Below are positions 5,161-37,664 of a DNA stretch of 37,664 bases, piece after piece. The first letter of the stretch is position 1. Every line of letters starts with the position of its first letter. The stretch comes from Thermoplasmatales archaeon SW_10_69_26 (lineage in GTDB: Archaea; Thermoplasmatota; SW-10-69-26), in assembly GCA_003009755.1 (NCBI GenBank), contig PXUB01000026.1, positions 1 to 37,664 on the forward strand, read 5' to 3'. The notes under the pieces were generated by a model. That model saw only the letters and a program-made list of their open reading frames with translations. It did no database searches and was not told where the DNA came from. The position numbers and the translations under genes are program-made.

Positions 5161-8100
5161 GTGGCAAGCCTGCGGCCTGGCTCGCCGGACGGTGACGATC
5201 CGAGGGCCACCTCGGCGGCTCGCGAGCCCTCAGCCTCGGCCGGTCGCTGGCTGCTCGTGGCTCTCGCGGTGCTCGTCGCGACGTTGACGTTGGCCACCCC
5301 GGCCAGCGCCGCCGGCGAGGACCTGACGATCCCCGAGGAGTTCCGGGACGTGGTCGAGGGCGACAGCGTCCCGATCAACGTCACCTTCGGCACGCTCTCC
5401 GACGACGAGGACGACGAGGCGGACATCCGGGTCACCTGCGACGGCTGCCCGACCTGGATCCGGACCGTCACGTTCGACGAGGAGAAGGCCAACTGCGAGA
5501 CGACGGACGCCTTCGTCGACACCGAGGACGGACAGGCCAAGCGCTCGGAGGCCGTCTGCCGGATCTCGTTCCCCGAGGGCTTCCGCGACGAGGACGGAGG
5601 CCCGCGGCCAGCCGAGATCGGCGAGCCCGCGCGCACGACCACGTACGACGTACGGATGGGGGTGGCCGGCGAGGAGGCGCGGACGACGTTCCAGGCGCAC
5701 CTCTCCTCGGCCTCCACGTGTCGACCGCTGCCCGGCGAGACGAAGACCGGCGTCGGGCAACGCAGCGACGTCCTCCTGCTGTCCACGAGCGGGCACCCGC
5801 AAGGCGAGGAGGTGACCTTGACGATCCGGTCGGCCAACACCGACCTGTTCGAGCGCACGTTCCAGAGCGCGGGCGAGTCGATCGCCTACCACTTCCGCTG
5901 GCAGGTTCCGCTGGATCTCCCGATCGAGGGCGACGGCCGCGAAGCCACGCTCATCGTGGATGCCGCCAGCGGCGGCGAGACCGAGACGATCGCGTTGCGC
6001 CCCGCCGTCGCCCAGGCGAGTCCGTTCCTGCAACCCGGCCGGTTCAACCAATCGGTGGAGTACAACCGGACCCAGGAGGTCAACGTCCAGACCGGGTTCG
6101 ACTTCTTCGCGGCCCCCCAGGACTGCAAGGACGTCGCCTGGAACCGGGACATCCAGCCGGTGAGGGAGGACCAGGTCGGGGACGATCCTCCGCGCGTGCT
6201 CGTCCGACGGCTCAGCGAGGCGCCCGGCTCGCCCCCGGTGGAGACGGTGGACACGGCCGACACCGTGTTCCGAGCCTCCGACGACTTCTTCCTCGTCAAC
6301 TACACGATCCCACGGGACGCCGACGCCACCGAGGCCGAGGAGGAGGACCCCGTCTACGACGTCAAGTTCGAGGAGACCGAGCTCGCCGACGGCAACTACA
6401 TCGGCGAGTGGAACTCCACCGACTACGAGGTCTACCCCTACGAGATCGAGCCGGAGTTCGCTGTCCTGCAGGAGGAGGTCGAGCGCCTGGAGACCGCCAG
6501 CCTGGTCATGAACCTCACCTACGCCGACGGGAGCACGTTCACGCCGGCGGACGCCGACGGGGACCTCGAGGTGGCCTTCGGGTTGGAAGGCGAGGATCCC
6601 GAGTTCCAGCAGGTCGCCAACCACCGCGGAGACGGGGTGTGGAACGTCTCCTTCGACCTCGGGTTCGACTACGAGCCGCTGGGCGAGTACACCTGGCGCA
6701 TCAGCGAGCTTCGCGACAACAACGGACCCCGGGGCGAGCGGAACCGCGTCCCCGAGACCGTCACCGACGTCGTCGACGTCGTGAGCGCCCGCCCCCGGCT
6801 GAACGTGACCACGATCGTGGACGACACGCGGGTGGAAAGCGTGGAGCGAACCCAGCGCGTGCAGGTGCGCGTGGATGCGCGTTTCCAGAACGGACAGCCG
6901 CTCACCGAGGAGAACATCGACCCTGCGATCGGCGGGATCGGGCTCGACGTCGACAAGCGCAACGAGTTCGGGCGCGTCGTCGACCAGGACAGCTACGTGA
7001 TGAAGCACGCCGGGGATCCCGGCACCTGGATCGAGTCCTTCCGGATCGGACGCAGCCCCTCCAGCGCCCCGGTCGGGACCTGGGATCTGAGCTTCGAGGC
7101 CCGCGACGACCGGACGCCGGCGAACGAGAACGTCACCTCGGTCCCATTCCGGGTGAACCCCGCGAACGTGACGGTGGCGGACCAGAAGGCGCCCCCGCAA
7201 CTGGTGAACAGCTCGCAGGTCTCCTACGAGTTCCGGCTCAACTACCCGGACGGCTCCCTGGTGTCCGAGCGCCTCGTCGACGAGTCCCGCGGAGGCCAGC
7301 TCGACGTCCGGCTCGAGCGCGTGACCCGGGCCGACCAGCCGGCCACCGTCGAGCGCGAGCTCGAGCCCCGCCCGGTCGCCGGGGGGCAGGCTTGGCGGGT
7401 TCAGATGAACACGTCCAAGATCGTGCCGGGCACCCACTTCTTCAACGTCACCGGCCAGGACGTGCACGGGAACGCGATCGGGCCGCAGGCCAGCGACCTG
7501 TTCACGGTCCTGTTCAACGGCGAGTTCCGCAACTCGACGACGCCGATCTGCCCCGAATCCGAGCAGGGTTGCTCGGTGCAGCGCGGCGAGACGGTGTACG
7601 TCGTCTTCCCGGGCGCCTCCGGCGACCAGGGCATGTTCGGCGAGCGGCCGGAGATCCGCGTCCTCCGCCAGGACGAGGAGTCCGGGCGGTGGATTTTGTT
7701 CCGCGAAGACGTGTGGCTGTCCTCCCAACAGTTCTTCAACCAGACCGGCCGCGACGCCGGCAACAACCACGTCGGTCGGTTCTCCACCGATCGGTCCACG
7801 CCGGCGGACACCTACCGGCTCGTCATGCTCGGTCGCGACAACGATGATCGTGGCTTCGTCGGGTACTCGCAGACCTTCAACGTCACGCGCGTCCCGGTCG
7901 AGCGCGAGATCGTGCAACCGTTCCCGGATCGGGCGAAGAAGACCGAGGAGATCGCAGCCCGGATCGAGAGCCGCGCGGGCGACGTCATCGACTCGACCGT
8001 CGTGGACGCGGGCCCGATCCGCGCTCGCAACATCCAGACGGACACGACGGGGGTGGGCACGTTCCTGCGCTGGCAGCCGCCCAGCACCTTCCCGACCGGG

Positions 8101-9228
8101 CCGGCCTCGGTCACGGTCGAGGGGCGGGACCTGTTCGGGAACCCCTTCGAGGTCGAGCTGGGCCCGATCGAGCTTCAACCGGTCGAGATCCGCACCCAGC
8201 CGGTGGGCCAGATCGCGACCACGGCGCCGCGCGGCCAGCTGTTCAGCTTCGATCTGCAGATGACCTACGAGACGGGGACCACCTTCACCGCCGGCGACGG
8301 CGAGCCCCAGGTCCGCGTGGTGGACGCAACCGGGAGCCAGGTGGACAGCGGTCGGGCCTCCTTCCAGGGTGAGACCTGGGAGATCCGTTGGCGACCGCCC
8401 GCCGATCTCTCCTCGGGGAACTACCGGGTCGAGGTGACCGGCACCGACCGCTCGGGCAACGTCGTCGAGGACTTCACGACCGCGCCGATCTCGGTCGTCG
8501 CCGGCACGGTGCGAGGCGAGCCCAGCCAGCAGCCGCCGAGCAACGTCCGCCGCGGCGAACGGGTGCAAGCCGCCCTCACGTTCCCGGCCGCGATCGAGGA
8601 GGGCCAGGCCGTCGTCACGACCGGGACCGACGAGGTCGGCGAGCCGCAGACGACGATCGACGGCTCGACGGTCCGGCTCAGCTTCCCGACCGACCGCAGC
8701 ACGGGCCTCGTCGACGCCCGGTTCTCGTTCACCGGCACCGACATCGTCGGGAACAACATCACCGGGCAGACCGACCGGTTCTCGGTGCGCGCTCAGGAGA
8801 TGGCGATCCGATGGATCGAGCAGCCGCCGACCGAGGTCACCAAGGACCAGCCGGTCGAGGCGGCGTTCGTCGTGGAGTACCCGGACGGGACGCCGATGCG
8901 TCCCAGCGAAGGGGCACCGATCGTGGGCCTGTTCGCCGCCGACCAGCCGCTGGGCCAGATCGACGCCACCCCGCTGGAGGACAACCCGGTCGTGTGGACG
9001 ACCAGCTGGGAGCCGCCCGAGGACGTCCGCACCGACATCGCCTACCGGTTCAGCGCCAGCGCGCGCGACTCCTTCCGGAACGAGGCGCCGCCGGTCTCCT
9101 CGCAGGGGTTCTTCGTGCAGAACCCGGTCGTGCCGGATTACGTGCCCGTGGACGCGCCCAGCGCCGTTGCCGCCTTGGCCGCCCTGGCCGGGCTGGCCCT
9201 GGCTCTGCGCCGCGAGCAGCGCGCCTGA
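5161..9228 (+). CDS. Large secreted cell-surface glycoprotein with tandem Ig-like beta repeats and a C-terminal membrane anchor (1355 aa)
   Basis: Signal peptide RWLLVALAVLVATLTLATPASA; recurring YxDG[ST] and GxDxxGN motifs; many N-x-S/T sequons; C-terminal VPVDAPS + hydrophobic helix + RR; ATTAAAT at 5131-5137. Confidence 0.85.
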   Translation: MASLRPGSPDGDDPRATSAAREPSASAGRWLLVALAVLVATLTLATPASAAGEDLTIPEEFRDVVEGDSVPINVTFGTLSDDEDDEADIRVTCDGCPTWIRTVTFDEEKANCETTDAFVDTEDGQAKRSEAVCRISFPEGFRDEDGGPRPAEIGEPARTTTYDVRMGVAGEEARTTFQAHLSSASTCRPLPGETKTGVGQRSDVLLLSTSGHPQGEEVTLTIRSANTDLFERTFQSAGESIAYHFRWQVPLDLPIEGDGREATLIVDAASGGETETIALRPAVAQASPFLQPGRFNQSVEYNRTQEVNVQTGFDFFAAPQDCKDVAWNRDIQPVREDQVGDDPPRVLVRRLSEAPGSPPVETVDTADTVFRASDDFFLVNYTIPRDADATEAEEEDPVYDVKFEETELADGNYIGEWNSTDYEVYPYEIEPEFAVLQEEVERLETASLVMNLTYADGSTFTPADADGDLEVAFGLEGEDPEFQQVANHRGDGVWNVSFDLGFDYEPLGEYTWRISELRDNNGPRGERNRVPETVTDVVDVVSARPRLNVTTIVDDTRVESVERTQRVQVRVDARFQNGQPLTEENIDPAIGGIGLDVDKRNEFGRVVDQDSYVMKHAGDPGTWIESFRIGRSPSSAPVGTWDLSFEARDDRTPANENVTSVPFRVNPANVTVADQKAPPQLVNSSQVSYEFRLNYPDGSLVSERLVDESRGGQLDVRLERVTRADQPATVERELEPRPVAGGQAWRVQMNTSKIVPGTHFFNVTGQDVHGNAIGPQASDLFTVLFNGEFRNSTTPICPESEQGCSVQRGETVYVVFPGASGDQGMFGERPEIRVLRQDEESGRWILFREDVWLSSQQFFNQTGRDAGNNHVGRFSTDRSTPADTYRLVMLGRDNDDRGFVGYSQTFNVTRVPVEREIVQPFPDRAKKTEEIAARIESRAGDVIDSTVVDAGPIRARNIQTDTTGVGTFLRWQPPSTFPTGPASVTVEGRDLFGNPFEVELGPIELQPVEIRTQPVGQIATTAPRGQLFSFDLQMTYETGTTFTAGDGEPQVRVVDATGSQVDSGRASFQGETWEIRWRPPADLSSGNYRVEVTGTDRSGNVVEDFTTAPISVVAGTVRGEPSQQPPSNVRRGERVQAALTFPAAIEEGQAVVTTGTDEVGEPQTTIDGSTVRLSFPTDRSTGLVDARFSFTGTDIVGNNITGQTDRFSVRAQEMAIRWIEQPPTEVTKDQPVEAAFVVEYPDGTPMRPSEGAPIVGLFAADQPLGQIDATPLEDNPVVWTTSWEPPEDVRTDIAYRFSASARDSFRNEAPPVSSQGFFVQNPVVPDYVPVDAPSAVAALAALAGLALALRREQRA

Positions 9229-9231
9229 GGG

Positions 9232-9366
9232 TCACTCGGCGCCGGCCGAGCGCGTGAGCCGCACCCACAACGCGACGGCCAGCGTCACGACGATCGGGGC
9301 CAGCGCGAGGCCGCCGATCAGGGCGAGCTCGAGCCAGCCGACGCGCCCGACGAGCACCGTGGACAC
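9232..9366 (-). CDS. Small membrane protein (44 aa)
   Basis: MSTVLVGRVGWLELALIGGLALAPIVVTLAVALWVRLTRSAGAE; GATAAGG about 24 nt upstream. The start is uncertain because the frame is open further upstream. Confidence 0.5.
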   Translation of the reverse strand: MSTVLVGRVGWLELALIGGLALAPIVVTLAVALWVRLTRSAGAE

Positions 9367-9613
9367 GCGCCGACCAGACCCCTGGTCCCTTATCGCCTTG
9401 GCGGCGGCTGGCGGTGTCACTTCCTCCGCGTGAGGGCACCCCGTCGCCGGCGCCCCGGCGTCGTGGACCGCGACCCGGCGAGGCCGGTCAGGACCGCTCA
9501 CGCTGGCCGCCGAGGACGCGGCGTCCGCCACCGATCCCCGGTGAACCTGAGGCCCACCGAACCCCTGGCGAGGCGGGCTCTGGCCCTCCGCGTCCACCCA
9601 GCGTGCAGGAAAC

Positions 9614-9619
9614 TTTAAG
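9614..9619 (+). promoter_or_regulatory. TATA box upstream of the long TrmB-1 leader
   Basis: GGAAACTTTAAG is the most AT-rich patch in the 640-bp intergenic region, about 385 nt before the TrmB ATG. Confidence 0.55.
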
Positions 9620-9639
9620 TGTAGACTGGCGGACGTGGC

Positions 9640-10005
9640 GGTTGCCTCGGGACGCCCCGGGGCACGTTGCCGAACCCGCACGCGCCTCCGCTCCACCCCG
9701 CGCTCGCCGGTGAGCGCGACCGTGCACCCCCGGTCCCAACCACCGATAGCGTCAGCTGTCGGTCGAAGGGGGTCCACGGTCGTCGGCCGGCCCGGTCGGG
9801 GCTCGCGGTCTCCCCGCGGCGCCCGATCGGTGCGCCGTCCACGGTCTCCCCGTGGCGGTGACCCGCGTGGTGGACGCCGCCGACCCGGCGGACGAGATCG
9901 ACCAGCGCCAGCTGGGCCGCTCTCGTGCGCCGGGCTCGATCGGCCTTCCCCAGCGGAGCGTGTGCACCGCGAAACCGCACCACACGCAACCGAGGGATCC
10001 AACAC
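9640..10005 (+). ncRNA. Candidate structured 5' leader or ncRNA upstream of TrmB-1
   Basis: Nearly continuous stem-loops (9643-9664, 9717-9782 enclosing 9742-9763, 9804-9818, 9839-9855, 9958-9987). G-U wobbles favour the + strand, and there is no credible ORF. Confidence 0.45.
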
Positions 10006-10854
10006 ATGGCCATCAACCAGGAACGTCTCGCCAAGATCCAGGACTACGGGCTGACTGAGTACGAAGCGCGCGCCTACCTCGCTCTGCTGGACTTCGAGGT
10101 GGCGACAGCGAGCAAGGTCGCGCGACTGGCGCGCGTGCCGCGCACGAAGATCTACCAGGCCCTCGAGGACCTCGAGGAGAAGCAGCTGGTCCGCGTCATC
10201 CCCGAGCGGCCCAAGCGCTTCGTCGCCCAGCCCTTCGACAACCACATCGAGCAGCTCGAGCGCGAGCACGAGCGTAAGATCGAGCAGCTCGAGGAGGAGC
10301 GGCGCGAGCTCGCCGACGAGTTCGAGCCCAAGGGCACGGTCAACCTCGAGGACCCCGGCCAGTTCGTCATGATGCGCTCGCGCTCGAACGTGACCGAGAA
10401 GATCATGAGTCTGATCGAGGGCGCCGAGGAGTCGGTGCTGCTCGTCGGCTCCGAGATGACGCTGGCGCGGTTCGACTACTTCGAGCCCACGATCGCGGAG
10501 GCCGCCGGCGACGGCGTCATGTTCACCGCGATGGGGCCCCTCACAGAGGAGAACGAGGAGGCCGTCGAGGAGCTGTCCGCGCACGGACGCATCCTCTCCT
10601 ACTCCGACGCCACGCCCGGCCAGTGCCTGATGATCGTGGACGGCGAGGAGGTCCTGCTCACGCACGCCGTGCCCGACGACACGCACATGTTCCAGGGCGA
10701 GGACGTCGCGCTGTGGACCGACGACCAGGCGATGGTCGCCTCCTTCGAGTCGATCGCCGAGATCGCGCTCACGGCCGCGCAGGTCGTCGAGGACGACCTC
10801 ACAGCGGACACCGAGGCCGCCGAGGAATCCGAGACCGCCGTCGCCGCCAACTGA
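10006..10854 (+). CDS. TrmB family transcriptional regulator, paralog 1 (282 aa)
   Basis: YGLTEYEARAYLALL...VPRTKIYQALEDLEEKQLV...RPKRF wHTH, a coiled coil, and a C-terminal effector domain (MIVDGEE). Confidence 0.92.
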   Translation: MAINQERLAKIQDYGLTEYEARAYLALLDFEVATASKVARLARVPRTKIYQALEDLEEKQLVRVIPERPKRFVAQPFDNHIEQLEREHERKIEQLEEERRELADEFEPKGTVNLEDPGQFVMMRSRSNVTEKIMSLIEGAEESVLLVGSEMTLARFDYFEPTIAEAAGDGVMFTAMGPLTEENEEAVEELSAHGRILSYSDATPGQCLMIVDGEEVLLTHAVPDDTHMFQGEDVALWTDDQAMVASFESIAEIALTAAQVVEDDLTADTEAAEESETAVAAN

Positions 10855-10863
10855 GGTGGACAG

Positions 10864-11079
10864 GTGTCCCTCACGCCGCGTGACGGACCGGACCTCAAGG
10901 TCCCCCCGTCGGACAACACGGCCACGGACGAGAGCTGCCGTGAGGCCGAGCCCATGAACGACGACACCGCGTCCGCCGCGAGCGACGTGCTGGCGACCCT
11001 GTGTCGCATGTCGCTGCTCCGCAACGAGTCGCTCACCGTGAGCGGCGGCTACGCGCGGACCCCGCCCCACGACGCGTAG
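10864..11079 (+). CDS. Small hypothetical protein (71 aa)
   Basis: GAGGTGG RBS right after the TrmB stop; fills the gap to the next gene; acidic; no recognisable domain. Confidence 0.4.
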   Translation: MSLTPRDGPDLKVPPSDNTATDESCREAEPMNDDTASAASDVLATLCRMSLLRNESLTVSGGYARTPPHDA

Positions 11080-11100
11080 ATCGCTTGGAGGTAGACCTTC

Positions 11101-11961
11101 GTGCCCGAGGCCCGCGACCGTCGGCTGCTCACCCTCGCCCTGGTGGCAGCTGTGCTGACGGCGGGCCTTTTGGGCACCGTGGACGCGACCAGCCACGTCG
11201 GGAACGAGCACCTGACGACCGGCCACACCGAGTTCGCCGACGCGTCCACGTCGTTCAACTCCTGCTTCGCCGGGCTCGCCGGCCTCCTGATGCAGCGCGT
11301 GACCTGGTTCAACGGACAGACGCTGTTCACGCGCGCCGACAGCGGCGGCGACAAGCACGTGTACGTGGCCGAGCACCTGGAGGATCGCGACGGCGACGGC
11401 TTCAACGAGAGCACCGGGTTCCGCGTCGATCAAGATCCCTCGCAGCAACGGCTCTACCGGACGAACAACACGTACACGTTCACCGACCCGCACGACAAGC
11501 AGAACGACGTCGAGGACCCCAAGCAGTGGGTCGTGAAGGAGTACTTCGAGCTCCGCGACCGCAAGGACATCAACGCCGAGGTCACCAAGGGCGACACGGG
11601 CCCCGACGAGGAGGCCTACGAGAAGGACAAGTTCTACGTCTTCGTCGTCCAGACCGGCGACGCCCGCACCGACGGCACGCTGCAGAAGGACTACAACTTC
11701 GCGATGGTGATCGACACCTGTCGGTTCTACGGCGCGCAGGCCGGCGAGGCCGATCACAACGGGACGAGCGGGACCAGCGGCGACCCGTGGGGCCAACACG
11801 AGGAGCAGGACGGCAACCACACCCACGGCGTGTTCTCGATCGACCTCTGGACCGGCGGCGAGCCGAACACGGTCGCCGGCGGCAACGCGCAGGTCCCCGA
11901 CGACCGTGACAACAAGGGCAACCAGTCCGTCGACGACGACCCGAAGGACGGCCAACCATGA
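11101..11961 (+). CDS. Secreted protein of an unrecognised family, paralog A (286 aa)
   Basis: GGAGG RBS; signal peptide RRLLTLALVAAVLTAGLLGTVDA; shares colinear motifs with 13153-14745. Confidence 0.82.
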   Translation: MPEARDRRLLTLALVAAVLTAGLLGTVDATSHVGNEHLTTGHTEFADASTSFNSCFAGLAGLLMQRVTWFNGQTLFTRADSGGDKHVYVAEHLEDRDGDGFNESTGFRVDQDPSQQRLYRTNNTYTFTDPHDKQNDVEDPKQWVVKEYFELRDRKDINAEVTKGDTGPDEEAYEKDKFYVFVVQTGDARTDGTLQKDYNFAMVIDTCRFYGAQAGEADHNGTSGTSGDPWGQHEEQDGNHTHGVFSIDLWTGGEPNTVAGGNAQVPDDRDNKGNQSVDDDPKDGQP

Positions 11962-12213
11962 GAGCCCCCCAGCCGACCGTATCGCGCAGCCGACGCTCGC
12001 CGGCCCGAGGCCAGCGTCGGCGCTTCCCCCTCACCCCTCACCCCTTCACCGTCACCAGGTCCCCCGGGATGGCCCGGGCGACCGTTGACCGCCGCTCACG
12101 CGGCGACTGCCGAACCCGCAGGACGTGGCCGCCCCCCTCTCTCGGGCGGCCGCATGCCGGCGCTCAGCCGGCGACCGCGCTCACGCGCGGCTCCGAGAGA
12201 CGAGGTGTTGCAC
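11962..12213 (+). ncRNA. Candidate structured leader upstream of TrmB-2
   Basis: Hairpins at 11990-12020, 12091-12104, 12127-12151, 12156-12172 and 12175-12190; TCACC four times at 12031-12056; shares TGCCGAACCCGCA with the TrmB-1 leader. Confidence 0.4.
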
Positions 12214-13020
12214 ATGGCGATCGAACAAGAGCACATGGAGAAGGTCCAAGACTACGGCCTGACCGAGTACGAGGCTCGGGCCTACCTGGCCTTGCTCGAG
12301 CTACACGGCGGGACCGCGCGCGAGGTGGCTTCACTGTCGCGCGTGCCCCGCACGAAGATCTACCAGGTCCTCGACGACCTGCACGAGAAACGGCTCGCGG
12401 AGGTCATCCCCGAGCGCCCCAAGCGCTACGTGGCGGTGCCCTTCGAGGAGTACCTCGAGCGCTTCGAGGAGGAGTACGAGGAGAAGCTCGAGAAGATCTC
12501 CCAGGACCGCGAGCTCGCGCGCGAGGAGCTGGTTCCCACCGGGGAACGGGAACCCACGCAAGCCGGCGCGTTCCAGATCTTCAAAGGCCGCAAGAACGTG
12601 ACGACCAAGATCGAGGAGATGCTCCAGGAGGCCGACGGGGAGGTCTTCCACGTCGGCTCCGGGCCCGCCGCCGAGCGGTTCCAGTACCACACGCCGGTGC
12701 TGGAGGACCTCGACGGCGAGGACGTGACCGTCCGCGCCCTGTTCCCGAAGACCGACGCCAACGAGGCCGCGTTGGACGAGCTCGCCGAGACGTGCGTCGT
12801 CCGCGATCGCGAGGATCCGGGCGCCGGCTCGGCGATCATGATCGTCGACGAGGACCAGGCGATCGTCTGGCATCCCGTGCCCGACGACAGCCACGTCTTC
12901 CAGGGCGACGACGTCGCCATGTGGACCGACGACGGTGTCGTCGTCGAGGACCTCAAAGCCGGTTTCGAGGCCTCGTGGTCCACGGGCGAGGAGGTTCCCC
13001 CGTGTTCCCCACCAGCGTGA
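12214..13020 (+). CDS. TrmB family transcriptional regulator, paralog 2 (268 aa)
   Basis: GAGGTG RBS; YGLTEYEARAYLALL...VPRTKIYQVLDDLHEKRLA; same C-terminal HxVPDDxHxFQGxDVAxWTDD motif as paralog 1. Confidence 0.92.
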   Translation: MAIEQEHMEKVQDYGLTEYEARAYLALLELHGGTAREVASLSRVPRTKIYQVLDDLHEKRLAEVIPERPKRYVAVPFEEYLERFEEEYEEKLEKISQDRELAREELVPTGEREPTQAGAFQIFKGRKNVTTKIEEMLQEADGEVFHVGSGPAAERFQYHTPVLEDLDGEDVTVRALFPKTDANEAALDELAETCVVRDREDPGAGSAIMIVDEDQAIVWHPVPDDSHVFQGDDVAMWTDDGVVVEDLKAGFEASWSTGEEVPPCSPPA

Positions 13021-13152
13021 CACAAGGATGCCTTTGCGTAGGCTACCGAATCCGTACCCTGCACGGAGGCAACGAGTCCGTGACTGCGACCAAGCGTGGT
13101 ACGTGCCATCGCTTCACGCAGCCCCCTGTTTCGAGATTGGAGGTGAGAGAAG

Positions 13153-14745
13153 GTGAATAGCCGCAAATTGATCGCGCTGTTCCTGGTGTTCGCCCTCACA
13201 GGCTCAGCACTGGCAGCGCAACAACAGCGATTGTACCGAGGAAGTGCCGATGGCGATGCCGAAGCTTCCGGCGTCACCGCCGTGCAACAGCACAGCGTGT
13301 TCATCGAGATCGTCGTGCAGGACGAGGATGAGGACGAGCAGGTCCACAAGTTCGCGGCCGTGGTCGGGCTCATCAAGAAGTGCAAGCAGGTCCGCAACGT
13401 CTTCGACAACGCGGTCCTGTGGTTCAACGACCAGTTCCTCTTCGGCGACAAGCAGAACAACGTCGAGGAGAACGAGACCGACAAAGGCCTCGACTCCCAG
13501 CCCGACCTGACGGCCGAGGAGCTCAACGCCACCGCCGAGGAGAAGGGCTTCGTCGGCGAGTCGTGGAACGGCACCGCCCGCTGGGGTGGCTGTTACACGC
13601 CCGACGGGTTCGCCCACGCGATCGGCGCCGACGATCCCTTCGGCACCGTGAACGTCCAGGCCGGTGGCGCCGAAGAGAACGTGTCCGCCGAGGACACGCA
13701 GACCGGCATCTTCTCGGCCGACGACAACAGGGACGTCGTCAAGAACCTGATCGACCTGGATCAGGACTGCAGAGGTTGCATCTTCGAGTACGACTCGAGC
13801 TTCTTCGTGGTCGACCCCAACGGCCACGAGTGGATCGTGGACAAGTACCTCTACCCGCTCTCCGTGGTGGGCAACCTCTTCTCGTCCGGTCAGGGCGACG
13901 ACTGCGGTGACAGCGAGTCCGACGACACCGCCAGCCCCTTCACGATCGACGACCCGCGCGAGGGCCACGACCCGAACACGTGTAAGGACGACACCGAAGA
14001 CGACCGAGACAACCACCGAGGCGGCAGCGAGAGCGGCTTCGCCGACCCCGCGCTCTACGAGCCGCTGTTCTCGGTGCACCTGCAGACTGACACGGACACG
14101 CCCGACGGTCTCGGCTTCGCCGACCAGGCGCGCTTCCAGTACAACGCCACCGCGGACGACACGCAGGCGACCGCCGAGCGCAACGGTGCGATCTACCCCG
14201 GCGAGGACGCGCAAACCCGCGAGGCGTGCGAGACGACGATCACCCCCGATCGGCGCTGCTCGATCGAGTACAACTTCCTGATCGCCGTGGACTTCGCCGC
14301 CTTCGACGGTGGCGGGACCAGCACCGGCGACGGTGACCCCTCGGTCACGCAGCGCGGCGAGAACGAGAAGACGGGCTGCGCCGTGGAGCACGGCGAGGGT
14401 GGTGCGGACAACGACACCGCCTACTGGCAGGGCAACTCGCACCCGCACAACCCCGAGAACCGCTCGGCGTCCCCGAACCACTGCCACTCGTCGGTGAACC
14501 TCGACATCTTCTTCCACAGCACCGCTCCGCAGTACACCACGGACCACCAGTACTGGACGGACAGTGCTGGCACACCGGTCAGCTGGGGTCCGGAGTGTAA
14601 CAGCGAGGAAGACACGGAGGAATTCGACGACGGGCAGGACGAAAGCGCGATCGACGCTCGCACCCCGCTCGTGTGCGACGACGACAGCGACGCTGGCGAG
14701 TTCCACGCCCACGACGGCAACCAGACGATCAGCGACGACCGCTGA
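13153..14745 (+). CDS. Secreted Cys/His-rich acidic protein of an unrecognised family, paralog B (530 aa)
   Basis: GGAGGTGA RBS; signal peptide RKLIALFLVFALTGSALA; about a dozen Cys; homologous blocks to 11101-11961. Confidence 0.85.
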   Translation: MNSRKLIALFLVFALTGSALAAQQQRLYRGSADGDAEASGVTAVQQHSVFIEIVVQDEDEDEQVHKFAAVVGLIKKCKQVRNVFDNAVLWFNDQFLFGDKQNNVEENETDKGLDSQPDLTAEELNATAEEKGFVGESWNGTARWGGCYTPDGFAHAIGADDPFGTVNVQAGGAEENVSAEDTQTGIFSADDNRDVVKNLIDLDQDCRGCIFEYDSSFFVVDPNGHEWIVDKYLYPLSVVGNLFSSGQGDDCGDSESDDTASPFTIDDPREGHDPNTCKDDTEDDRDNHRGGSESGFADPALYEPLFSVHLQTDTDTPDGLGFADQARFQYNATADDTQATAERNGAIYPGEDAQTREACETTITPDRRCSIEYNFLIAVDFAAFDGGGTSTGDGDPSVTQRGENEKTGCAVEHGEGGADNDTAYWQGNSHPHNPENRSASPNHCHSSVNLDIFFHSTAPQYTTDHQYWTDSAGTPVSWGPECNSEEDTEEFDDGQDESAIDARTPLVCDDDSDAGEFHAHDGNQTISDDR

Positions 14746-14750
14746 CCCAA

Positions 14751-14862
14751 CCGGCCACCGTAGCGGGGGGGCGACCTCCCCCGCCGTTTCGGCCGCGCGG
14801 TCCGCCCTCGCTCGGTGGGGGCGGACCCACCTTCTCTCGCCGTTCTTTTTCCCGACTTTCTT
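14751..14862 (+). terminator. Two GC-rich hairpins followed by a pyrimidine/T tract
   Basis: Stems 14763-14784 and 14799-14827, then TTCTTTTTCCCGACTTTCTT. Confidence 0.55.
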
Positions 14863-14915
14863 GACACCCCACCAGCGGTGCCGTTCCCTCGGCATGGCAC
14901 CCGTAACGACGCACC

Positions 14916-15572
14916 GTGACGGACGGGTCGTTATGGGGATCCTGTCCCACGCCAGGCGTGGGTGTTGCCGTGTCCGAGACCAACGGTTGGACGCCGTACC
15001 CGCACGAGGAGGTGCGAGTCCACCGGCTCTGGCGCAAACGCATCCTGCTCGGGCTCGTGATCGCGGCCCTGTTCCTCGCCTGGGCGTTCTCTCTGGGCGT
15101 GACCACGGACACCGAGGAGCAGGTCGACGTCTACGGCGGCGACGACTCCGAGGTCTCCGTCGAGCGGCCCGAGGAGCAAGACCGCGGACCCGCGGCAACG
15201 GTGACCCTCCGACCGGGCGAGGTGGCCCGCGTCGACGAACCGTTGGACGTCGGCGAAGAACAGACCGACAGACAGGGAACCGGATCGTCGGTCCCCGAGC
15301 AACCCGATGGCATCCCGTTCCTCGGCATCCTGCTCCTGTTGGGACCGTTCATCGCGGCCGTGCTCGCCTACCGCAACCTGGCCAGCCAGGGCGACGTGGC
15401 TGAGGCCAACTACGGGATCTACACCGGCCCGATGCCCTACGAGATGATCACCGCCGGCCACGCCGAGCTCGTCCAGACCGGTGAGCACGTGGAGCAGAAC
15501 CCGTTCGGCAAGCGTCGGCGGGACTACCTGCGGGAGACGATCGAACCCCGTCGTCGGTTCCGCGAGCGGTGA
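14916..15572 (+). CDS. Hypothetical membrane protein with two TM helices
   Basis: TM1 ILLGLVIAALFLAWAFSLGV, an acidic extracellular loop, GIPFLG + TM2, and a cytoplasmic tail. The true start may be GTG 14958 or 14970. Confidence 0.72.
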   Translation: MTDGSLWGSCPTPGVGVAVSETNGWTPYPHEEVRVHRLWRKRILLGLVIAALFLAWAFSLGVTTDTEEQVDVYGGDDSEVSVERPEEQDRGPAATVTLRPGEVARVDEPLDVGEEQTDRQGTGSSVPEQPDGIPFLGILLLLGPFIAAVLAYRNLASQGDVAEANYGIYTGPMPYEMITAGHAELVQTGEHVEQNPFGKRRRDYLRETIEPRRRFRER

Positions 15573-15599
15573 CGGCTCCCGCCAACCGCGGCCCCTGGG

Positions 15600-15767
15600 C
15601 CGGCTGTCTGGTTAAGCAGGGGCCGCGAGGGACACGAAGGATCGCCAAGGCCACGACGGGCCTGTGACTCGCCGCCGGGCGGCCTTGTCACGGCAGCTGC
15701 TCCCCCTTGTGCCCTGGCATCCCTTCGCGTACTTGGTGGTCCCCCCGTTTCTTATCCTTACAGCGCG
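15600..15767. mobile_element. MITE-like non-autonomous element, copy 2 (168 bp)
   Basis: About 94% identical to 1329-1496 in the same orientation. Flanked by the direct repeat GCCCCTGGG at 15591-15599 and 15768-15776, which differs from the copy-1 flank. Confidence 0.8.
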
Positions 15768-15814
15768 GCCCCTGGGACCCAACAGTTTAACCTTCACGTT
15801 GGAATCCACCATCC

Positions 15815-16564
15815 ATGGGGCTGCGGGACGTGCTGGGGGGCCCCGGCGACCGTACCGCCGGCCGAATCCTCGCGATCTCCCTCGTGGCTAGCTTGCTCGC
15901 CGTCCCGTTGACACCGTCCGCCGGCGCCGAACACGGCGACGTCGGCGTGAGCCTGGAACCCTGGATCGTCTCCTGCGGGAACGAGGACTGGATCGGCTTC
16001 CAGGGTCGATACAGCCTCCTGTTCTACCGCTTTTGCTTCTTCGTCGACGCAGAAAGCCCCGACTACCCGTTCCGGGTGCTCGACGAGTTGCTCTTCCCGC
16101 CGGACCTCCAACGGGATCGCTGTCCCGGGGACTTCTCGGGCCAGATCGTCACCGTCGGCGACACCCGAGCCGGGCTGTGCACCAAGGTCGAACACACGAT
16201 CCCTCGCAACCCCTTCTTCATCCACGTCGGGGTCGACACCTCCAGCTGCGAGGTGCCTGGCCCCCAGGAAGGCGAGGACCCCGCCGTGTACGTCGCCGAC
16301 GGCGGCGTGGGGGTCTGCGTGGTCCCCGTCGTCGATCCAGGCCCCGACACCCCGAGCAGGTTCGTCTCCCTCGAGCCCTGCGAGCCCGAGACCGTCGACC
16401 CCGAGGCCCGCGTCGGCGGAGGCGGCGCACGCGTCTGCGCGGATTTCCACGTGCTCGGCTTCGGCTCCGACGAGGTGAACGATCTCGTGGAGCAGGGCAA
16501 CGAGACCGCCAACGAGACGCTGGACGCCGTCCGCGGCTTCGCCGGGCTGGACGAGGAACCGTAA
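15815..16564 (+). CDS. Secreted Cys-rich hypothetical protein (249 aa)
   Basis: TTTAAC at 15786-15791; signal-like RILAISLVASLLAVPLTPSAGA; 8 Cys; acidic. Confidence 0.72.
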   Translation: MGLRDVLGGPGDRTAGRILAISLVASLLAVPLTPSAGAEHGDVGVSLEPWIVSCGNEDWIGFQGRYSLLFYRFCFFVDAESPDYPFRVLDELLFPPDLQRDRCPGDFSGQIVTVGDTRAGLCTKVEHTIPRNPFFIHVGVDTSSCEVPGPQEGEDPAVYVADGGVGVCVVPVVDPGPDTPSRFVSLEPCEPETVDPEARVGGGGARVCADFHVLGFGSDEVNDLVEQGNETANETLDAVRGFAGLDEEP

Positions 16565-16610: not shown

Positions 16611-18374
16611 GTGGCCGAGGACGCCAACCCCCTCCAGGAGAGCATGGAGCGGACAGCTCGCATCGGCGAGCTGTTCCTGCCAGCGCCTCCTCTGTTCCTC
16701 AGCTACCTGTTGATCGTGCTCGCGACGGTGGCCAGCGCCGCGCTCCTCGGCGCGGACCTGTCGGCCGCCGTCGACGCCGGGCTGCTCGTCGCGCTGCCGG
16801 CCGTGTTCGCCTCGCTGGTGTCCCCGATCGTGGCCCGGTTGCTCGGCACGCGGTACTACCTCGACCGGGCGGCCACCGTCGCCGCGATCGGGGCCGTCGT
16901 CGTCAGCCTGGGGGTCCTCGCCACCGTCCTGCTGGGCCTGGTCGGGCTGACGCCGGCCAAGGTCCTGTTCACCGCCGTGGGGCTCGCGTGGGTGGCCGGG
17001 TTCGCGGCCGCCGTCGTGCTCGTCGACAACCGCCACCCGGTCGCGCTGGGCTTGTCGGCGCTGCAGCCGCTGTCGACCCTGCCGGGCCTCGTCCGCATCG
17101 TCGGCACGGACGGGCTGCTCGTCGGGTTGGTCGTCTGGGTGGCGATCGTGGCCCCGTTCGTCGTCGTTTTGCGGCTCTTCGATGCACCGCTGACGCGGAA
17201 CTTCGGGATCTCGGGCGCCGATCTGTTCCGCGGCTACCTCGACCACGTCACGACCGACAGCTGGGAGGCCGAGGACCTGCTCGAGAAGGTCGGGCAACCC
17301 GTCCAGGCGCCGGTCGCCGTGCTGGCCTTCCACCGCGAGGACGGCTCGAAGAAGGCCTGCGTCGTCGTCCCCACCGTGCACCCGGGGCCCTTCGGCGCGC
17401 TCGGCGGCGGGGATCTGCCGGCCAAGATGCGGGACGCGCTGCTGGACTGGGAGCACGTGCTCGTCCCGCACGGCGCCGCCGACCACGACCTCAACCCGGT
17501 GACGAGCGAGGAGGTCGAACGCCTGGGCGCCTACGTCAGCGAGCTCGCCGACCGCGTCGACACCGAACCCGGCGGCTCCCGCTTCGTCGAACGCGGGGAG
17601 ACGGTGCGCGTGGCGGGCCAGCTGTTCGGCTCGGATGCCCTGTTGACCTACACCTCGTGGCCGGAGGCGATCGACGACGTCGACCCGGGCGTGGGCCACC
17701 ACGCCGAGCTCGCCGCCCAGGGGAGCGGGGCCCGCGAGGCTGCCTTCGTCGACTGCCACAACTCGATCCGTCCCGGCGCCGGCGCCGTGTTCCCGCTCAC
17801 GCCGCGCGCCCTCGACATCGAGGATCGGGCCGGAGAGGTGACCCAGGCGGCGCTGGACGAGCGGGTCAACCAGCTGCGCGTCGGGGTGGCCCAGGACCGG
17901 ACGCTGGGCATGCGGCACCTGATCGGGCGCGCCGGCTGCCAGGTCCTCGTCGTCGAGGCCGACGACCAGCGGGTCGCCTACATCCTGTGGGATGGCAACA
18001 ACATGGAGCCGGAGGCCACGGAGGCGATCCAGGAGGCCGCGGGGACCGTCGTGGACGAGGTGCGCGTGATGACGACCGACAACCACGCCGTCAACGTCGA
18101 AGGCGGTCCCCACAGCCCGGTCGGGATCGCCGTCCGCCACGAGGCGCTGGCCCGCATCTCGCGCGAGACCGCCGAGCGCGCGATCGAGGACCTCGAGCCC
18201 GTCGAGGCCGGGATCGCCAGCGGGCACGCGTGCGGGATCAACGTCGTCGGCCACCAGCGCACCGCTCAGCTGTCGGCCAGCATCAACGTCATGGTGAGCG
18301 TGTGGCCCGAGCTGGCCCTCGCCCTGCTGGGGCTGTGGACGTTGGGGCTGGCCACCGTGTTCCTGGCGTTGTGA
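16611..18374 (+). CDS. DUF2070 family archaeal membrane protein
   Basis: N-terminal multi-TM region, then the motifs HPGPFG, VPHG..DHDLNP, DCHNS, DGNNM, TTDNH, and a C-terminal TM. Confidence 0.88.
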   Translation: MAEDANPLQESMERTARIGELFLPAPPLFLSYLLIVLATVASAALLGADLSAAVDAGLLVALPAVFASLVSPIVARLLGTRYYLDRAATVAAIGAVVVSLGVLATVLLGLVGLTPAKVLFTAVGLAWVAGFAAAVVLVDNRHPVALGLSALQPLSTLPGLVRIVGTDGLLVGLVVWVAIVAPFVVVLRLFDAPLTRNFGISGADLFRGYLDHVTTDSWEAEDLLEKVGQPVQAPVAVLAFHREDGSKKACVVVPTVHPGPFGALGGGDLPAKMRDALLDWEHVLVPHGAADHDLNPVTSEEVERLGAYVSELADRVDTEPGGSRFVERGETVRVAGQLFGSDALLTYTSWPEAIDDVDPGVGHHAELAAQGSGAREAAFVDCHNSIRPGAGAVFPLTPRALDIEDRAGEVTQAALDERVNQLRVGVAQDRTLGMRHLIGRAGCQVLVVEADDQRVAYILWDGNNMEPEATEAIQEAAGTVVDEVRVMTTDNHAVNVEGGPHSPVGIAVRHEALARISRETAERAIEDLEPVEAGIASGHACGINVVGHQRTAQLSASINVMVSVWPELALALLGLWTLGLATVFLAL

Positions 18375-18510: not shown

Positions 18511-19626
18511 GTGGGAGCGAGGACCCACGTGGGCTGCAGAACGACAGTTGGTGGTCACGATCGCGGCGCCGACACGGTCGTCGGCTTCGTCCTCGTGACC
18601 GGCATCTCGTTGTTGATGATCTCCGTCGTCATGCTGATGGGCGCGCCGGCCCTCGAGCAGGTGCAGTCCCGCCAGCAGACGGACTCGATGATCGGGGCCT
18701 TCCAGCGCCTCGACCGCGGCGTCAGCACGCTGTTGTCGGGCGCCCCCGCCGGCACCACGCCCGCCTGGCAGGTCTCGATGGCCGACGGTTCGATGAGCCT
18801 GGACGAGGGCGGCAAGCACCTGTGGGGGTACAACGCGAACATCGACCGGAACGGGACCACCTACGAGGTGTGGTTCGGCGAGTACGCCGACGGCGACGAC
18901 CAGCTCAAGATCCACAACAACGGGACGGCGTTCGGCTCCGACGAGTTCCAGCTGGAGGCCTACCGTTACGAAGCCGGCGAAGAGGTCGCCCAGCACGTCT
19001 TCGACCGGAGGTCGCTGAACTCCAGTGAAACCTTAAACATCAGCGACCCCGCCTTCTGGGATCTCGAGGGCCACTCTACACAGTTCAAGGTCTTCAACCG
19101 CAGCTCCAACCCCGACCGGCCCGTGGCCCACGCGTGGTTCATCGACGGCGGCGCCGTCGAGTGGGAGCTGTCCCGCGGGGGATCGATGACCCAGATCCTG
19201 TACCAGAACACCGCCATCGTGGCCGCCATCGACGGCGGCCAGGTCATGCACAACACCCCGCGGCTGCGCGCCCCCGACGATTCGGGCGAGGGAACCGAGG
19301 ACGTGTTCGTCCGCGTCGTGAAGCTCGAGGGCGCCCTCGCCACCGGCGGCCGTTCCTCCACCGAGGTGCTGGTGTCCAGCCAGGGCAACCACGAGCGCGT
19401 GGCCTCCGGCAACGCGACGAAGGTCCAGATCTACCCGCCGACGTCGATGAGCGAAGCCTGGGAGCGCTACCTCACGAACGAGAAGGCCGGGTTCACGTAC
19501 ACCTGGGAGGACGGCTTCTCGGTCTTCGACGGCAAGGAAGCGGCGGTGTGGTACACCTCCAACGATCGGCTGTCCACCTCGCTCGTCGAGACGACCGTCA
19601 CGTTGTCGCGGTCGGGAGGGACCTAG
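18511..19626 (+). CDS. Archaeal type IV minor pilin-like protein (class III signal peptide)
   Basis: DRG|ADTVVGFVLVTGISLLMISVVMLMGAPALEQ; first gene of the pilus operon; TTATAT at 18487-18492. Exact start uncertain. Confidence 0.78.
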   Translation: MGARTHVGCRTTVGGHDRGADTVVGFVLVTGISLLMISVVMLMGAPALEQVQSRQQTDSMIGAFQRLDRGVSTLLSGAPAGTTPAWQVSMADGSMSLDEGGKHLWGYNANIDRNGTTYEVWFGEYADGDDQLKIHNNGTAFGSDEFQLEAYRYEAGEEVAQHVFDRRSLNSSETLNISDPAFWDLEGHSTQFKVFNRSSNPDRPVAHAWFIDGGAVEWELSRGGSMTQILYQNTAIVAAIDGGQVMHNTPRLRAPDDSGEGTEDVFVRVVKLEGALATGGRSSTEVLVSSQGNHERVASGNATKVQIYPPTSMSEAWERYLTNEKAGFTYTWEDGFSVFDGKEAAVWYTSNDRLSTSLVETTVTLSRSGGT

Positions 19627-19628
19627 CC

Positions 19629-20189
19629 GTGGACCTGCTCGAACGCTGGCAGCGCCGGCTCCGCAACGACGAGGGCGCGACCGAGGTCATCGGCTACGTG
19701 TTCATGTTCGCCGTGGGCTCGATGGCGCTCGTCTTCGCGATGGACGTCCTCGTCGACGCCCAGCAGCGAGGCAACGAGGTGGCGGCGGCCAAACAGGCCG
19801 AGCAGTTCGGCCAGCTGACGGGCAGCCTGGCCGAGCAGGCCTCCCGGGTCGCCCAGGCCGCCCCCAACGCCACGTACAACACGACGTTCGACCTGCCGAA
19901 CCCGGTCGGCACCAACATGACCGTCACGATCAACCGCGAGCTGTTACCCAACGGGACGGCCGCCGACTGCGGCTTCGAGGCGACCGTCCACGTCCGCTCC
20001 GGTGACCAGCGGGTCAGTACGAGCTTCCCCCTCGGCAACGTGTCCACGGTCGAGATCGATGGGGACTGTCTCGAGTTCAAGGGTGAACTCGACACGTCCG
20101 CCCAAGCCGCAAGCGTTAGGTACGACCCTCCAGGGAAGACCCACGCGGCCCCGACGATCGTCCTCGAACCAACCAGCAAGGTGAGATGA
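19629..20189 (+). CDS. Archaeal type IV pilin-like protein (186 aa)
   Basis: GTG 2 nt after the upstream stop; RRLRNDEG|ATEVIGYVFMFAVGSMALVF class III signal; one Cys pair. Confidence 0.8.
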   Translation: MDLLERWQRRLRNDEGATEVIGYVFMFAVGSMALVFAMDVLVDAQQRGNEVAAAKQAEQFGQLTGSLAEQASRVAQAAPNATYNTTFDLPNPVGTNMTVTINRELLPNGTAADCGFEATVHVRSGDQRVSTSFPLGNVSTVEIDGDCLEFKGELDTSAQAASVRYDPPGKTHAAPTIVLEPTSKVR

Positions 20190-22969: not shown

Positions 22970-22970
22970 G

Positions 22971-23846: not shown

Positions 23847-23850
23847 TCGC

Positions 23851-32473: not shown

Positions 32474-32546
32474 GAACGGGGACCGCGGTCCACGCCTTCG
32501 CCTTTTCGGGCTCGCGGGGCACGGCGAGACCGCGGCGAGGGCGACC

Positions 32547-33394: not shown

Positions 33395-33596
33395 GGGCTC
33401 TCCGGGACGGGCGCGGGGGGTGATGAAGCTTGGTGGTAGTGGGAACGGTCCCCTCCGGTTGTCAGCCTGAGCTCGGCAAGGGTCGAGCTTGACGGTGGAG
33501 GCACAAGGGAAGGGCCGAGGCGAGCACCGTCGGGAACACGAGAAGAACGCTCCGCAGCGGGGGACGCCCGCCACGGAGCTCGTCGCCGGGAGGCCC

Positions 33597-37567: not shown

Positions 37568-37664
37568 GCCCTCGCCCAAAACCCCAGACTGGCCTCTGAT
37601 CCGACTCGACCCAGTAGAAACTGATTCGAAGAATAAACGGCGGGTTCGGCGACTTTTGTTTTGA
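37568..37664. mobile_element. Possible IS terminal inverted repeat and IS end
   Basis: GCCCTCGCCCAAAACCC at 37568-37584 resembles IS5/IS1182-type termini as I recall them, and it coincides with an abrupt loss of acidic coding character. No transposase is visible in the window. Confidence 0.3.

Follow-up and report, generated by a model that had tools for sequence, protein, structure and literature searches.

The window examined here is contig PXUB01000026.1 (positions 1-37,664 of the forward strand, 37,664 nucleotides, nt), and our subject is a block of genes at positions 9614-15572, all on the plus strand, in which two regulators of the TrmB family (TrmB1 and TrmB2) alternate with two predicted exported proteins (Sec1 and Sec2), followed by a protein with two transmembrane (TM) segments, hereafter the 2-TM protein. 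The best explanation for this arrangement, to which we tentatively assign a probability of about 0.4 as a whole, is that it is a vertically inherited, class-specific gene block of the halophilic Thermoplasmatota in which exported proteins would be placed under their own pair of regulators. The regulators are ordinary members of a known family, nearest to TrmBL2 in build. The novelty resides in the exported proteins, in the fixed way in which they are paired with regulators and in a cis element, TTGCC(G/A). Nothing matching these, or the 2-TM protein, was found in the libraries or in the open-access literature; no description of the block was found in open-access text, supplementary files being outside the scope of that search.

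The original prediction described a unit of leader, TrmB gene and secreted protein gene that occurs twice in tandem on one strand, and every element that it listed is indeed present. The open-frame listing, third-position G+C and family scans give the following order on the plus strand: a 1355-amino acid (aa) surface-type protein, a gene-free stretch, TrmB1 (10006-10854, 282 aa), a 71-aa open reading frame (ORF) overlooked in the original prediction (10864-11079), Sec1 (11101-11961, 286 aa), TrmB2 (12214-13020, 268 aa), Sec2 (13153-14745, 530 aa), a terminator, the 2-TM protein (14916-15572), a 249-aa ORF and a DUF2070 membrane protein. TrmB1 and the small ORF are separated by 9 nt, the small ORF and Sec1 by 21 nt, and Sec1 and TrmB2 by 252 nt. 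Both regulator genes begin with conserved ATG codons (at 10006 and 12214). A Shine-Dalgarno (SD) sequence precedes Sec1, TrmB2 and Sec2, namely an SD-like GGAGGT 7 nt upstream of the GTG of Sec1, GAGGTG upstream of TrmB2 and GGAGGTGA before the GTG start of Sec2. As the original prediction stated, the block contains no transporter or enzyme gene recognized by Pfam or NCBIfam.

The order TrmB1-Sec1-TrmB2-Sec2 was recovered by tblastn in the respective regions of all five available genomes of the same family, which are assigned to three other genera, and the 2-TM gene comes next in the four of these whose contig extends so far; G001 and G004 of this set carry a second copy of Sec2. The records of the relatives are titled as metagenome-assembled genomes of uncultured Thermoplasmata or Thermoplasmatales archaea. 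Within the family, identity to the window proteins is 69-77% for the regulators (69-76% for the TrmB1 orthologs, present in 5/5 relatives, and 72-77% for those of TrmB2), 52-58% for the 2-TM protein and 33-41% for Sec1 and Sec2; the faster divergence of the Sec proteins relative to the regulators is as expected for exposed proteins.

The linkage extends across the class, for which 21 related, non-independent genomes were available; a further 130 genomes sampled the remainder of the phylum. We took 36 regions around every strong match to the Sec superfamily (defined below) from the 14 other class genomes that have one. Exactly one locus per genome, in 14 of the 14, has TrmB genes flanking Sec genes, so that the synteny check proposed in the original prediction gives a link between Sec homologs and TrmB in 5/5 same-family and 14/14 further class genomes. 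In 11 of the latter the order is TrmB1-type, Sec, TrmB2-type, the other three loci being cut by contig ends, and ten of these eleven loci have one to five Sec2-type genes after the TrmB2-type gene. The largest expansion is a tandem of five Sec2-type genes between TrmB2 and the 2-TM gene in G011 (contig C26, L054:1902-10445). Most class blocks are flanked by the large surface protein, the 2-TM gene and DUF2070. The 22 remaining regions comprise 21 solitary Sec genes with no TrmB gene in their flanks and one with a TrmB-like gene 3.6 kb off. A scan of metagenome contigs yielded three loci only, and L053 alone added synteny. With a 72-row profile, the superfamily was detected in 20 of the 21 class genomes (the miss is an 86% complete genome) and in none of the 130 others. 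Given the order kept within the family and the TrmB-Sec locus kept across the class, the duplication is old rather than local, and predates the class.

On the evidence of sequence comparison, Sec1 and Sec2 form one previously unrecognised superfamily, in line with their description as distant paralogs in the original prediction. BLASTP links them only at E = 0.003; hhalign aligns 67 N-terminal columns with a probability of 95% (E = 2.5e-8), and a 71-row superfamily profile built without Sec1 matches 16 of 16 Sec1-family proteins with E values from 1.9e-10 to 1.4e-4 (Z = 1e6), the latter being that of the Sec1 of the window; several of these matches cover nearly the whole length. In a word-indexed search, 27 clusters in 5.8 billion were matched by Sec2 and 16 by Sec1, and a HMMER search of 1.84 billion representatives with a Sec2 profile found 99 proteins at E <= 1e-3, many of which match in three separate conserved blocks. 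The superfamily is defined here by a signal peptide and the blocks (V)LWFNDQ, DPN..W and YN...G.SH...H; Sec2 is a founding member, and Sec1 belongs to it by the profile matches given above. The alignments contain a strongly conserved segment directly past the signal peptide that ends in (V)LWFNDQ(F)L(F), and long acidic variable inserts between the conserved blocks. Residues that are near-invariant across the superfamily include H47, C147, H430 and H445. Sec1 is a short acidic member (isoelectric point, pI, 4.5; 2 Cys, 10 His) and Sec2 a long one (pI 4.1; 12 Cys, 16 His, 8 N-x-S/T sequons); the Sec2 family has, in addition, more conserved His and Cys residues and a conserved C-terminal FH.HDGSQT. 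Export is predicted from hydrophobic N-termini that end in ALA or VDA and look cleavable. Most homologs have RR or RK before the hydrophobic core (e.g., RRRLxTLAL in the Sec1 family); an RR motif in this position is typical of substrates of the twin-arginine translocation (Tat) pathway. Many of the Sec matches that lie outside this family but within the class are reported with a single in-frame stop codon (TAA, TAG or TGA).

No enzyme or solute-binding family was matched by the Sec proteins in any of the comparisons made, and their designation as an unrecognised secreted family stands. Pfam returned no family for any of the 72 superfamily members, and NCBIfam none for Sec1 or Sec2. In searches of the Protein Data Bank (PDB), the 72-row superfamily profile (A6) found no matches, and the A2 profile found three chance-level rows (E >= 0.73). 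Structural comparisons of low-confidence models gave best Foldseek E values of 0.083 and 0.39, a best VIA-align Z of 3.3 for Sec1 and nothing at Z >= 2 for Sec2; the Protein Atlas had no usable match for Sec2, its own model being poor.

Many Sec paralogs stand alone, without TrmB, as in the 21 of the 36 class loci mentioned above and in a copy on contig C5 of the present genome, which is 54% identical to Sec2 and has no adjoining TrmB gene. Close to its C-terminal end, this C5 paralog (L005:6644-9798) seems to break into two frames (32388-33689 and 32294-32386). Its neighbours in tail-to-tail arrangement are a camelysin/TasA-type protein (PF12389, E = 2.3e-14), a signal peptidase (PF10502) and a small secreted ORF, and on its other flank is a 1835-aa beta-helix/PKD surface protein.

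Membership of TrmB1 and TrmB2 in the TrmB family follows from PF01978 scores of 72.0 and 76.1 bits (cut-off 25.6; E = 3.8e-20 and 2e-21). They are paralogs, as the original prediction held, though hardly the close ones that it took them for (45% identity over 264 aa, E = 2e-70). Only half of the PF11495 effector domain is present (profile positions 2-120 and 2-136 of 233), and TrmB1 scores 19.2 against a cut-off of 22.2. The complete effector domain expected of the sugar-sensing TrmB and TrmBL1 is thus lacking, and the NCBIfam equivalogs score 31-57 bits against cut-offs of 500-650. Neither protein is a TrmBL2 ortholog, given scores of 37.9 and 59.8 bits for the TrmBL2 equivalog NF041141, far below its cut-off of 530. 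Nevertheless, the best solved relative of TrmB2 is TrmBL2 (5bpd, E = 5.4e-16, residues 12-259 aligned), which, according to passages in PMC4158304, is devoid of the 70 residues that bind sugar. Since both regulators are TrmBL2-like and have no sugar-binding part, the missing sugar genes are to be expected and are no anomaly.

In a quick maximum-likelihood tree of 18 + 18 regulators, the genes in TrmB1 position are all on one side of a branch (weak support, 48), and those in TrmB2 position group on another, together with a third paralog from contig C23 (support of 85 in the approximate likelihood-ratio test SH-aLRT); none of 500 shuffles of the position labels clusters as well. This third TrmBL2-like paralog of the genome (C23:14743-15540, minus strand) shares 41-48% identity with TrmB1 and TrmB2 and has no Sec gene within about 6 kb.

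The sequence that might connect the regulators with the block was noticed as a 13-nt motif shared by the two leaders. This 13-mer, TGCCGAACCCGCA, does occur at 9668-9680 and 12108-12120, and three times in the 2.8-Mb genome. Its first copy is contained in GTTGCCGAACCCGCACGC (9666-9683), with the core TTGCCG and a small stem GUU/AAC around GCCG. Judging from the upstream sequences across the class, this 13-mer represents, in the present genome, a more widespread TTGCC(G/A) element found before TrmB and Sec1-type genes throughout the class. The counts upstream of TrmB genes use start codons inferred from tblastn alignments, and those upstream of Sec genes use starts estimated from the profile alignment. 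The 35 TrmB-upstream regions (10,341 nt) contain 35 sense and 4 antisense copies of TTGCC(G/A), with 4.8 expected per strand, and 19 regions upstream of Sec1-type genes, i.e., TrmB1-Sec1 spacers, contain 22 sites.

The flanks of the element show a tendency to pair. In a set of 36 sites, which includes every TTGCC(G/A) in the 300 nt before the 35 TrmB genes irrespective of structure, and the first copy of the window, six flanking positions on each side pair in 53.8% of cells compared with 36.2 ± 2.9% in shuffled sets (reached by 0/500). The covariation score is 0.368 vs 0.159 shuffled (again 0/500), and the pairing peaks at slide 0, dropping to 31-46% when the partner is slid by 1-3 columns. 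Stems of at least 5 bp are found at 10 of 75 TGCC sites compared with 1.1% genome-wide, and stems of at least 4 bp at only 13 of the 2592 TTGCC(G/A) sites of this genome. In six loci, TTTAAG stands 52-55 nt before the first GTTGCC, a spacing at which the element would lie ~25-30 nt into the transcript, and several genomes have the element in the interval from SD to start codon, in the form GGTGTTGCC(N1-4)ATG. Control at the RNA level, as suggested in the original prediction, thereby gains support that is real but indirect, coming from sense-strand specificity and covarying stems. A genome-wide regulon was also considered and rejected: of the 28 occurrences of the 11-mer, most are within genes and lack the context.

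The leaders are rich in hairpins, as predicted. Compared with shuffled sequences, RNA folding gives z = -6.6 for 9640-10010 on the plus strand (-3.6 on the opposite strand) and z = -4.0 for 12040-12220. The putative long 5' leader of TrmB1 (9640-10005), the start of which is predicted, is preceded by a box resembling a TATA box with its TFB recognition element (BRE), CAGGAAACTTTAAGTG (9606-9621), in which TTTAAG occupies 9614-9619, position 9614 being its first base, and TTTAAGT is invariant in 5/5 aligned same-family genomes. Between the TATA box and the motif is a 9-bp hairpin, TGCCTCGGG-ACGC-CCCGGGGCA (9643-9664), which is seen in the sequence and in the minimum free energy (MFE) fold; RNAalifold keeps this stem on five orthologs, with both-sided changes in one of seven pairs. 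All five family genomes have, in order, CAGCAAG.TTTAAGTA (BRE/TATA-like), a G+C hairpin and GTTGCCGAACC(C/T)GCACGC. The length of the TrmB1 leader varies from ~110 to 320 nt among the relatives, and only the 5' hairpin with the motif and a 3' AGCGGAGCGTG segment are conserved.

Upstream of TrmB2, the order in 6/6 orthologous regions is TCAC repeats, a hairpin, TGAC, a second hairpin and the invariant GCCGAACCCGC. In the window, four TCAC repeats (TCACCCC TCACCCCT TCACCG TCACC, 12031-12056) are followed by two hairpins in the MFE fold (12058-12083 and 12090-12105) with the conserved TGAC between them, and by the second copy of the 13-mer; (T)TCAC(C/G)GTCAC is kept in 6/6 regions. In the alignment, the sequence of the hairpin stems differs between genomes and the pairing stays, the stem of the second hairpin being wholly different; hairpin B is backed by RNAalifold. 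A further 9-bp hairpin past the Sec1 stop, followed by a C/T-rich tract (11989-12021), may be a terminator or a processing site. The terminator that was claimed for the end of the block is found as two G+C hairpins (14763-14784 and 14799-14827) followed by a T5 run (14846-14850), altogether 14763-14850; a scanner for bacterial-type promoters and terminators did not call it, a result that is uninformative for an archaeon.

A search of Rfam with window positions 9200-15900 (E <= 5) gave three chance-level matches, none of them in the leaders. RNAalifold applied to 11 mixed leaders aligned with MAFFT retained a 3-pair stem only; since unrelated stems cannot be aligned by MAFFT, folds per group and the unselected set of TTGCC(G/A) sites were used instead. 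Two simpler roles of the motif were tried and rejected. Masking of the TrmB1 ribosome site, suggested by the MFE fold, was dismissed by eye, the pairing being kept neither in other genomes nor before TrmB2. A short upstream ORF starting from the motif (M-L-P-N-P/L-H) was dismissed after translation by hand, as only six codons are shared and the lengths differ widely, which argues that the motif is conserved as nucleotides.

Taken together, these observations are best read as a system for exported envelope proteins, perhaps metal-binding, whose production would be under autoregulation. A first transcript, starting ~25 nt past the TATA box at 9614, would comprise TrmB1, the small ORF and Sec1, and a second unit, with its end at the hairpins and T-run around 14850, TrmB2 and Sec2. 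Feedback on expression of the regulators, and thereby of the Sec1-type gene, would act through the sense-strand TTGCC(G/A) element, which is placed past the TATA box, either in hairpin loops of the predicted leaders or between SD and start codon. The protein binding the element would most simply be TrmB1 or TrmB2 themselves; it is only the gene order that would point to a dedicated regulator for each subunit, as the original prediction had it. The Sec proteins are predicted to be exported and to act outside the cell, in or on the envelope, where they would probably hold a metal through the few invariant His and Asp residues. The 2-TM protein might anchor them or report their state inward. A preference for structured nucleic acid has a precedent in the TrmBL2 subfamily: by analogy, it can be noted that parts of PMC4877046 describe TrmBL2 as binding double- and single-stranded DNA alike and as stabilising hairpins. 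One could go further and propose that TrmBL2-type proteins act on RNA, binding the UUGCCG loop, or the letters between SD and start codon, in their own leaders and so controlling translation of themselves and of a class-defining pair of exported metalloproteins that would build or service the envelope. We regard this extension as distinctly improbable; if true, it would mean that control at the RNA level had been found for the first time in the TrmB family, and that the exported proteins have a new extracellular fold.

Several points weigh against the autoregulatory reading. The transcription start site, the operon structure and the leader itself are all deduced from the sequence, and the TrmBs are only proposed as the binding partner of the element, the form of the target (RNA, single-stranded or double-stranded DNA) being likewise a proposal. 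No site is found in 11 of the 35 TrmB-upstream regions. Upstream of Sec2-type and solitary Sec genes there are 3 sites in 61 regions, which is at or below background (~0.14 expected per region), so that the element is no general Sec operator. In the family of the present genome, the TT of the motif is paired within the 3-bp stem (GUU/AAC around GCCG), whereas in other families it is in the loop; with a register that differs between families and about half of the cells paired, one common RNA shape is not established. With energies of -23.1 and -21.5 kcal/mol, the hairpins that precede the motif still fall within the range of 26 other sites of the motif in this G+C-rich genome, close to its strong end. 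Because TrmBL2 is a global chromatin protein, both TrmBs might act genome-wide. In G010, no Sec2-type gene was found between TrmB2 and the 2-TM gene. The small metal site of the Sec proteins is a guess from a few conserved residues. Finally, the AlphaFold models of Sec1 and Sec2 have pLDDT (predicted local distance difference test) values of 60.9 and 56.5 and pTM (predicted template modelling) scores of 0.62 and 0.65, and with such modest confidence the Sec fold may be new or merely unresolved.

The element, taken by itself, could also be an ordinary double-stranded DNA operator at which TrmB1 or TrmB2 block the polymerase, the hairpins being incidental palindromes of a G+C-rich genome with no control at the RNA level. 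Passages in PMC4158304 place the operators of TrmB-family repressors downstream of BRE/TATA, where binding leads to repression, and the fixed distance of the element past the TATA box, the energies of its hairpins, which stay within the genomic range, and the family-dependent register would all agree with such a role. We nevertheless find it rather doubtful. The same passages describe the known TrmB operators as palindromes, and here the reverse is seen, a non-palindromic centre that is conserved between symmetric arms that vary; the bias of 35 sense to 4 antisense copies and the copies lodged between SD and start codon do not fit either. There is even less to be said for the view that the adjacency is historical only, with TrmBL2-like proteins serving as general chromatin or global regulators that happen to share a neighbourhood with Sec genes. 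It would account for the many Sec paralogs that have no TrmB gene nearby and for the third TrmB paralog, on C23, with no adjoining Sec gene, and TrmBL2 is indeed a global, abundant DNA-binding chromatin protein according to parts of PMC4877046 and PMC4158304. We consider it very unlikely, given that the alternating order is kept in 11 of the 14 class genomes outside the family, with DUF2070 inverted in some, and that the cis element is common to the upstream regions of TrmB1, Sec1-type and TrmB2 genes only.

As for the exported proteins, the fibre, coat or signalling role envisaged for them in the original prediction is not supported. In its most explicit form, Sec1 and Sec2 would be the small and large subunits of an extracellular polymer (fibre, coat or matrix), in which, for example, the conserved N-terminal strand is donated to a neighbour. 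In its favour, a small and a large Sec gene stay linked throughout the class, conservation is highest in the hydrophobic stretch right past the signal peptide, and the Sec1 model is predicted to be beta-rich. In addition, genes for pilus assembly (for DUF7289, a PilB3-like ATPase and a PilC-like protein) lie close to the block in this family, and the C5 paralog has genes for a camelysin/TasA-type protein and a signal peptidase beside it. It is in this family only, however, that the pilus genes adjoin the block, with no match in the class loci that have the block; the signal peptides (MNSRK-LIALFLV...ALA-AQQ) resemble, by eye, ordinary cleaved signals and not those of pilins; and PDB profiles, Foldseek and VIA-align reveal no likeness in sequence or fold to TasA, pilins, cannulae or S-layer proteins, so we judge a polymer unlikely. 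Prediction of a Sec2+Sec1 complex gave a median score of 0.27, the mark being 0.32, which speaks neither for nor against a complex. The rapid divergence of the Sec proteins relative to the regulators, the number of paralogs per genome (with the tandem of five in G011), the hypervariable acidic inserts between conserved blocks and the small membrane protein that is always downstream could instead fit an arms race with competitors or viruses, in which the Sec proteins would be weapons released by the cell or surface antigens that vary, and the 2-TM protein an immunity or docking partner. This seems very unlikely to us: the conserved blocks, including the C-terminus, are kept class-wide, unlike in polymorphic toxins with swapped ends, the 2-TM gene is single copy and the Sec genes are many, and there is no likeness to toxin or defence families in Pfam, the PADLOC library not having been searched.

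Among known systems, TrmBL2 of Pyrococcus furiosus (PF0496) and Thermococcus kodakarensis (TK0471; structures 5bpd and 5box) is the closest to the regulators, being 264 aa long compared with 268-282 aa here and sharing with them both the winged helix at the N-terminus and a shortened C-terminal domain from which the sugar-binding part is missing. The difference is that TrmBL2 acts globally as a chromatin protein and has no constant partner gene, whereas here two paralogs stand in a fixed order with exported-protein genes and a specific cis element. The sugar-sensing TrmB and TrmBL1 (Tgr) at ABC transporter operons share with the block a regulator gene next to its presumed target genes, and in passages of PMC4158304 an operator downstream of BRE/TATA represses and autoregulation occurs; the block differs in having no transporter or sugar enzyme and only half of the effector domain. 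The operators differ as well, being palindromic in the known cases (TACT-N3-AGTA; TATCAC-N5-GTGATA), in contrast to the non-palindromic TTGCC(G/A) with variable flanks.

The phage MS2 coat-protein operator and the iron-responsive element are RNA operator hairpins bound by protein, with a short conserved loop on a stem free of sequence constraint, in a 5' leader or over the ribosome site or start codon; the present element is similar in these respects and has no sequence relation to them, no Rfam match and no uniform pairing register across families. Fibre subunits of the TasA/camelysin type are, like the Sec proteins, exported and beta-rich (in Sec1, as modelled) with a conserved segment just past the signal peptide, and one Sec paralog adjoins a camelysin-type gene; they differ in that no Pfam, PDB-sequence or fold match connects them with Sec1 or Sec2.

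The block is a hallmark of an entire class of salt-adapted Thermoplasmatota and offers for testing an orphan superfamily of exported proteins and TrmBL2-like regulators tied to specific genes rather than acting globally. A strand-specific element with covarying stems could show how TrmBL2-type regulators read structured nucleic acid, and should the Sec proteins turn out to serve the envelope or to handle metals, they may account in part for how this lineage lives in salt crusts. Of the DNA sequencing runs, those in which an appreciable part of the locus is represented (X1-X5) carry the label of halite metagenomes; among the sequencing-run matches, no RNA run carries the locus.

The 2-TM protein is present as a single copy in 17 of the 21 class genomes, with one weak match (E = 2e-4) in the 130 others, and has no Pfam or NCBIfam match. 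The IPFLG motif noted in the original prediction is there, within DGIPFLG; it is specific for the family (GIPF(L/M)G in four of the five same-family orthologs and in none from other families), and it is the ends of the protein that are conserved across the class. In an alignment of 14 sequences, the conserved end segments are WTPYxHE, NYGxYKGxxPLExITA and FGKxRxDY, and the middle loop drifts. From the two hydrophobic segments, the conserved N- and C-terminal segments are predicted to be cytoplasmic.

The small ORF, with a GTG start and a third-position G+C of 0.92, is maintained in the same frame in 6/6 same-family genomes, with a conserved N-terminal MSATxRD and C-terminal LCRMALVRxxSLTVxGAY; it was not found in the 36 loci of other families and has no Pfam or NCBIfam match. 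A third copy of GTTGCCGAACCCG, read L-P-N-P, lies inside this ORF in the TrmB1-Sec1 spacer of L026 and L028 (G001 and G004), and a degenerate GCCGAGCCC is present at the matching place in the small ORF of the window. The 249-aa secreted-looking ORF (p249) also lacks Pfam and NCBIfam matches.

The large surface-type protein (5161-9228, plus strand, 1355 aa) has an N-terminal hydrophobic segment and weak Ig-like Pfam matches only. Its C-terminus, ...DYVPVDAPSAVAALAALAGLALALRREQRA, consists of a VPxxxP-like motif, a TM segment and a basic tail, an arrangement that, we presume, recalls archaeosortase-type sorting signals. A homolog is located directly before TrmB1 in G001 and G003 and in L054, L057, L066, L074, L075, L078 and L081. 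The far-end neighbour of the block, DUF2070 (16611-18374, plus strand; PF09843, E = 1.1e-117), adjoins it in G001, G003 and G004 and in L060, L063, L066, L075, L081, L083 and L085, in either orientation. Downstream of DUF2070, positions 18511-26292 encode DUF7289 (E = 2.1e-15), a 927-aa PilB3-like ATPase (T2SSE, E = 3.8e-33; PilB3_C) and an 813-aa PilC-like T2SSF protein, which together look like the assembly genes of an archaeal type IV pilus-like structure; in G001 and G003, too, DUF2070 is followed by DUF7289 and PilB3.

Toward the end of the window, an unusual 560-aa ORF (31892-33574, minus strand) fuses an ion-transport channel domain (PF00520) with an S-adenosylmethionine-dependent (SAM) methyltransferase (PF13649), and a 971-aa protein (34594-37509, minus strand) in the lower-G+C end contains six CBM60 carbohydrate-binding repeats (E = 1.1e-87). 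The G+C content goes down to 58-63% in the last 3 kb. The A+T-richer sequence at 37591-37664 (minus strand), which contains GCCGAACCCGC by chance, ends contigs C19, C23, C24 and C26 (the present one), and its recurrence at four contig ends indicates a repeat that breaks the assembly.

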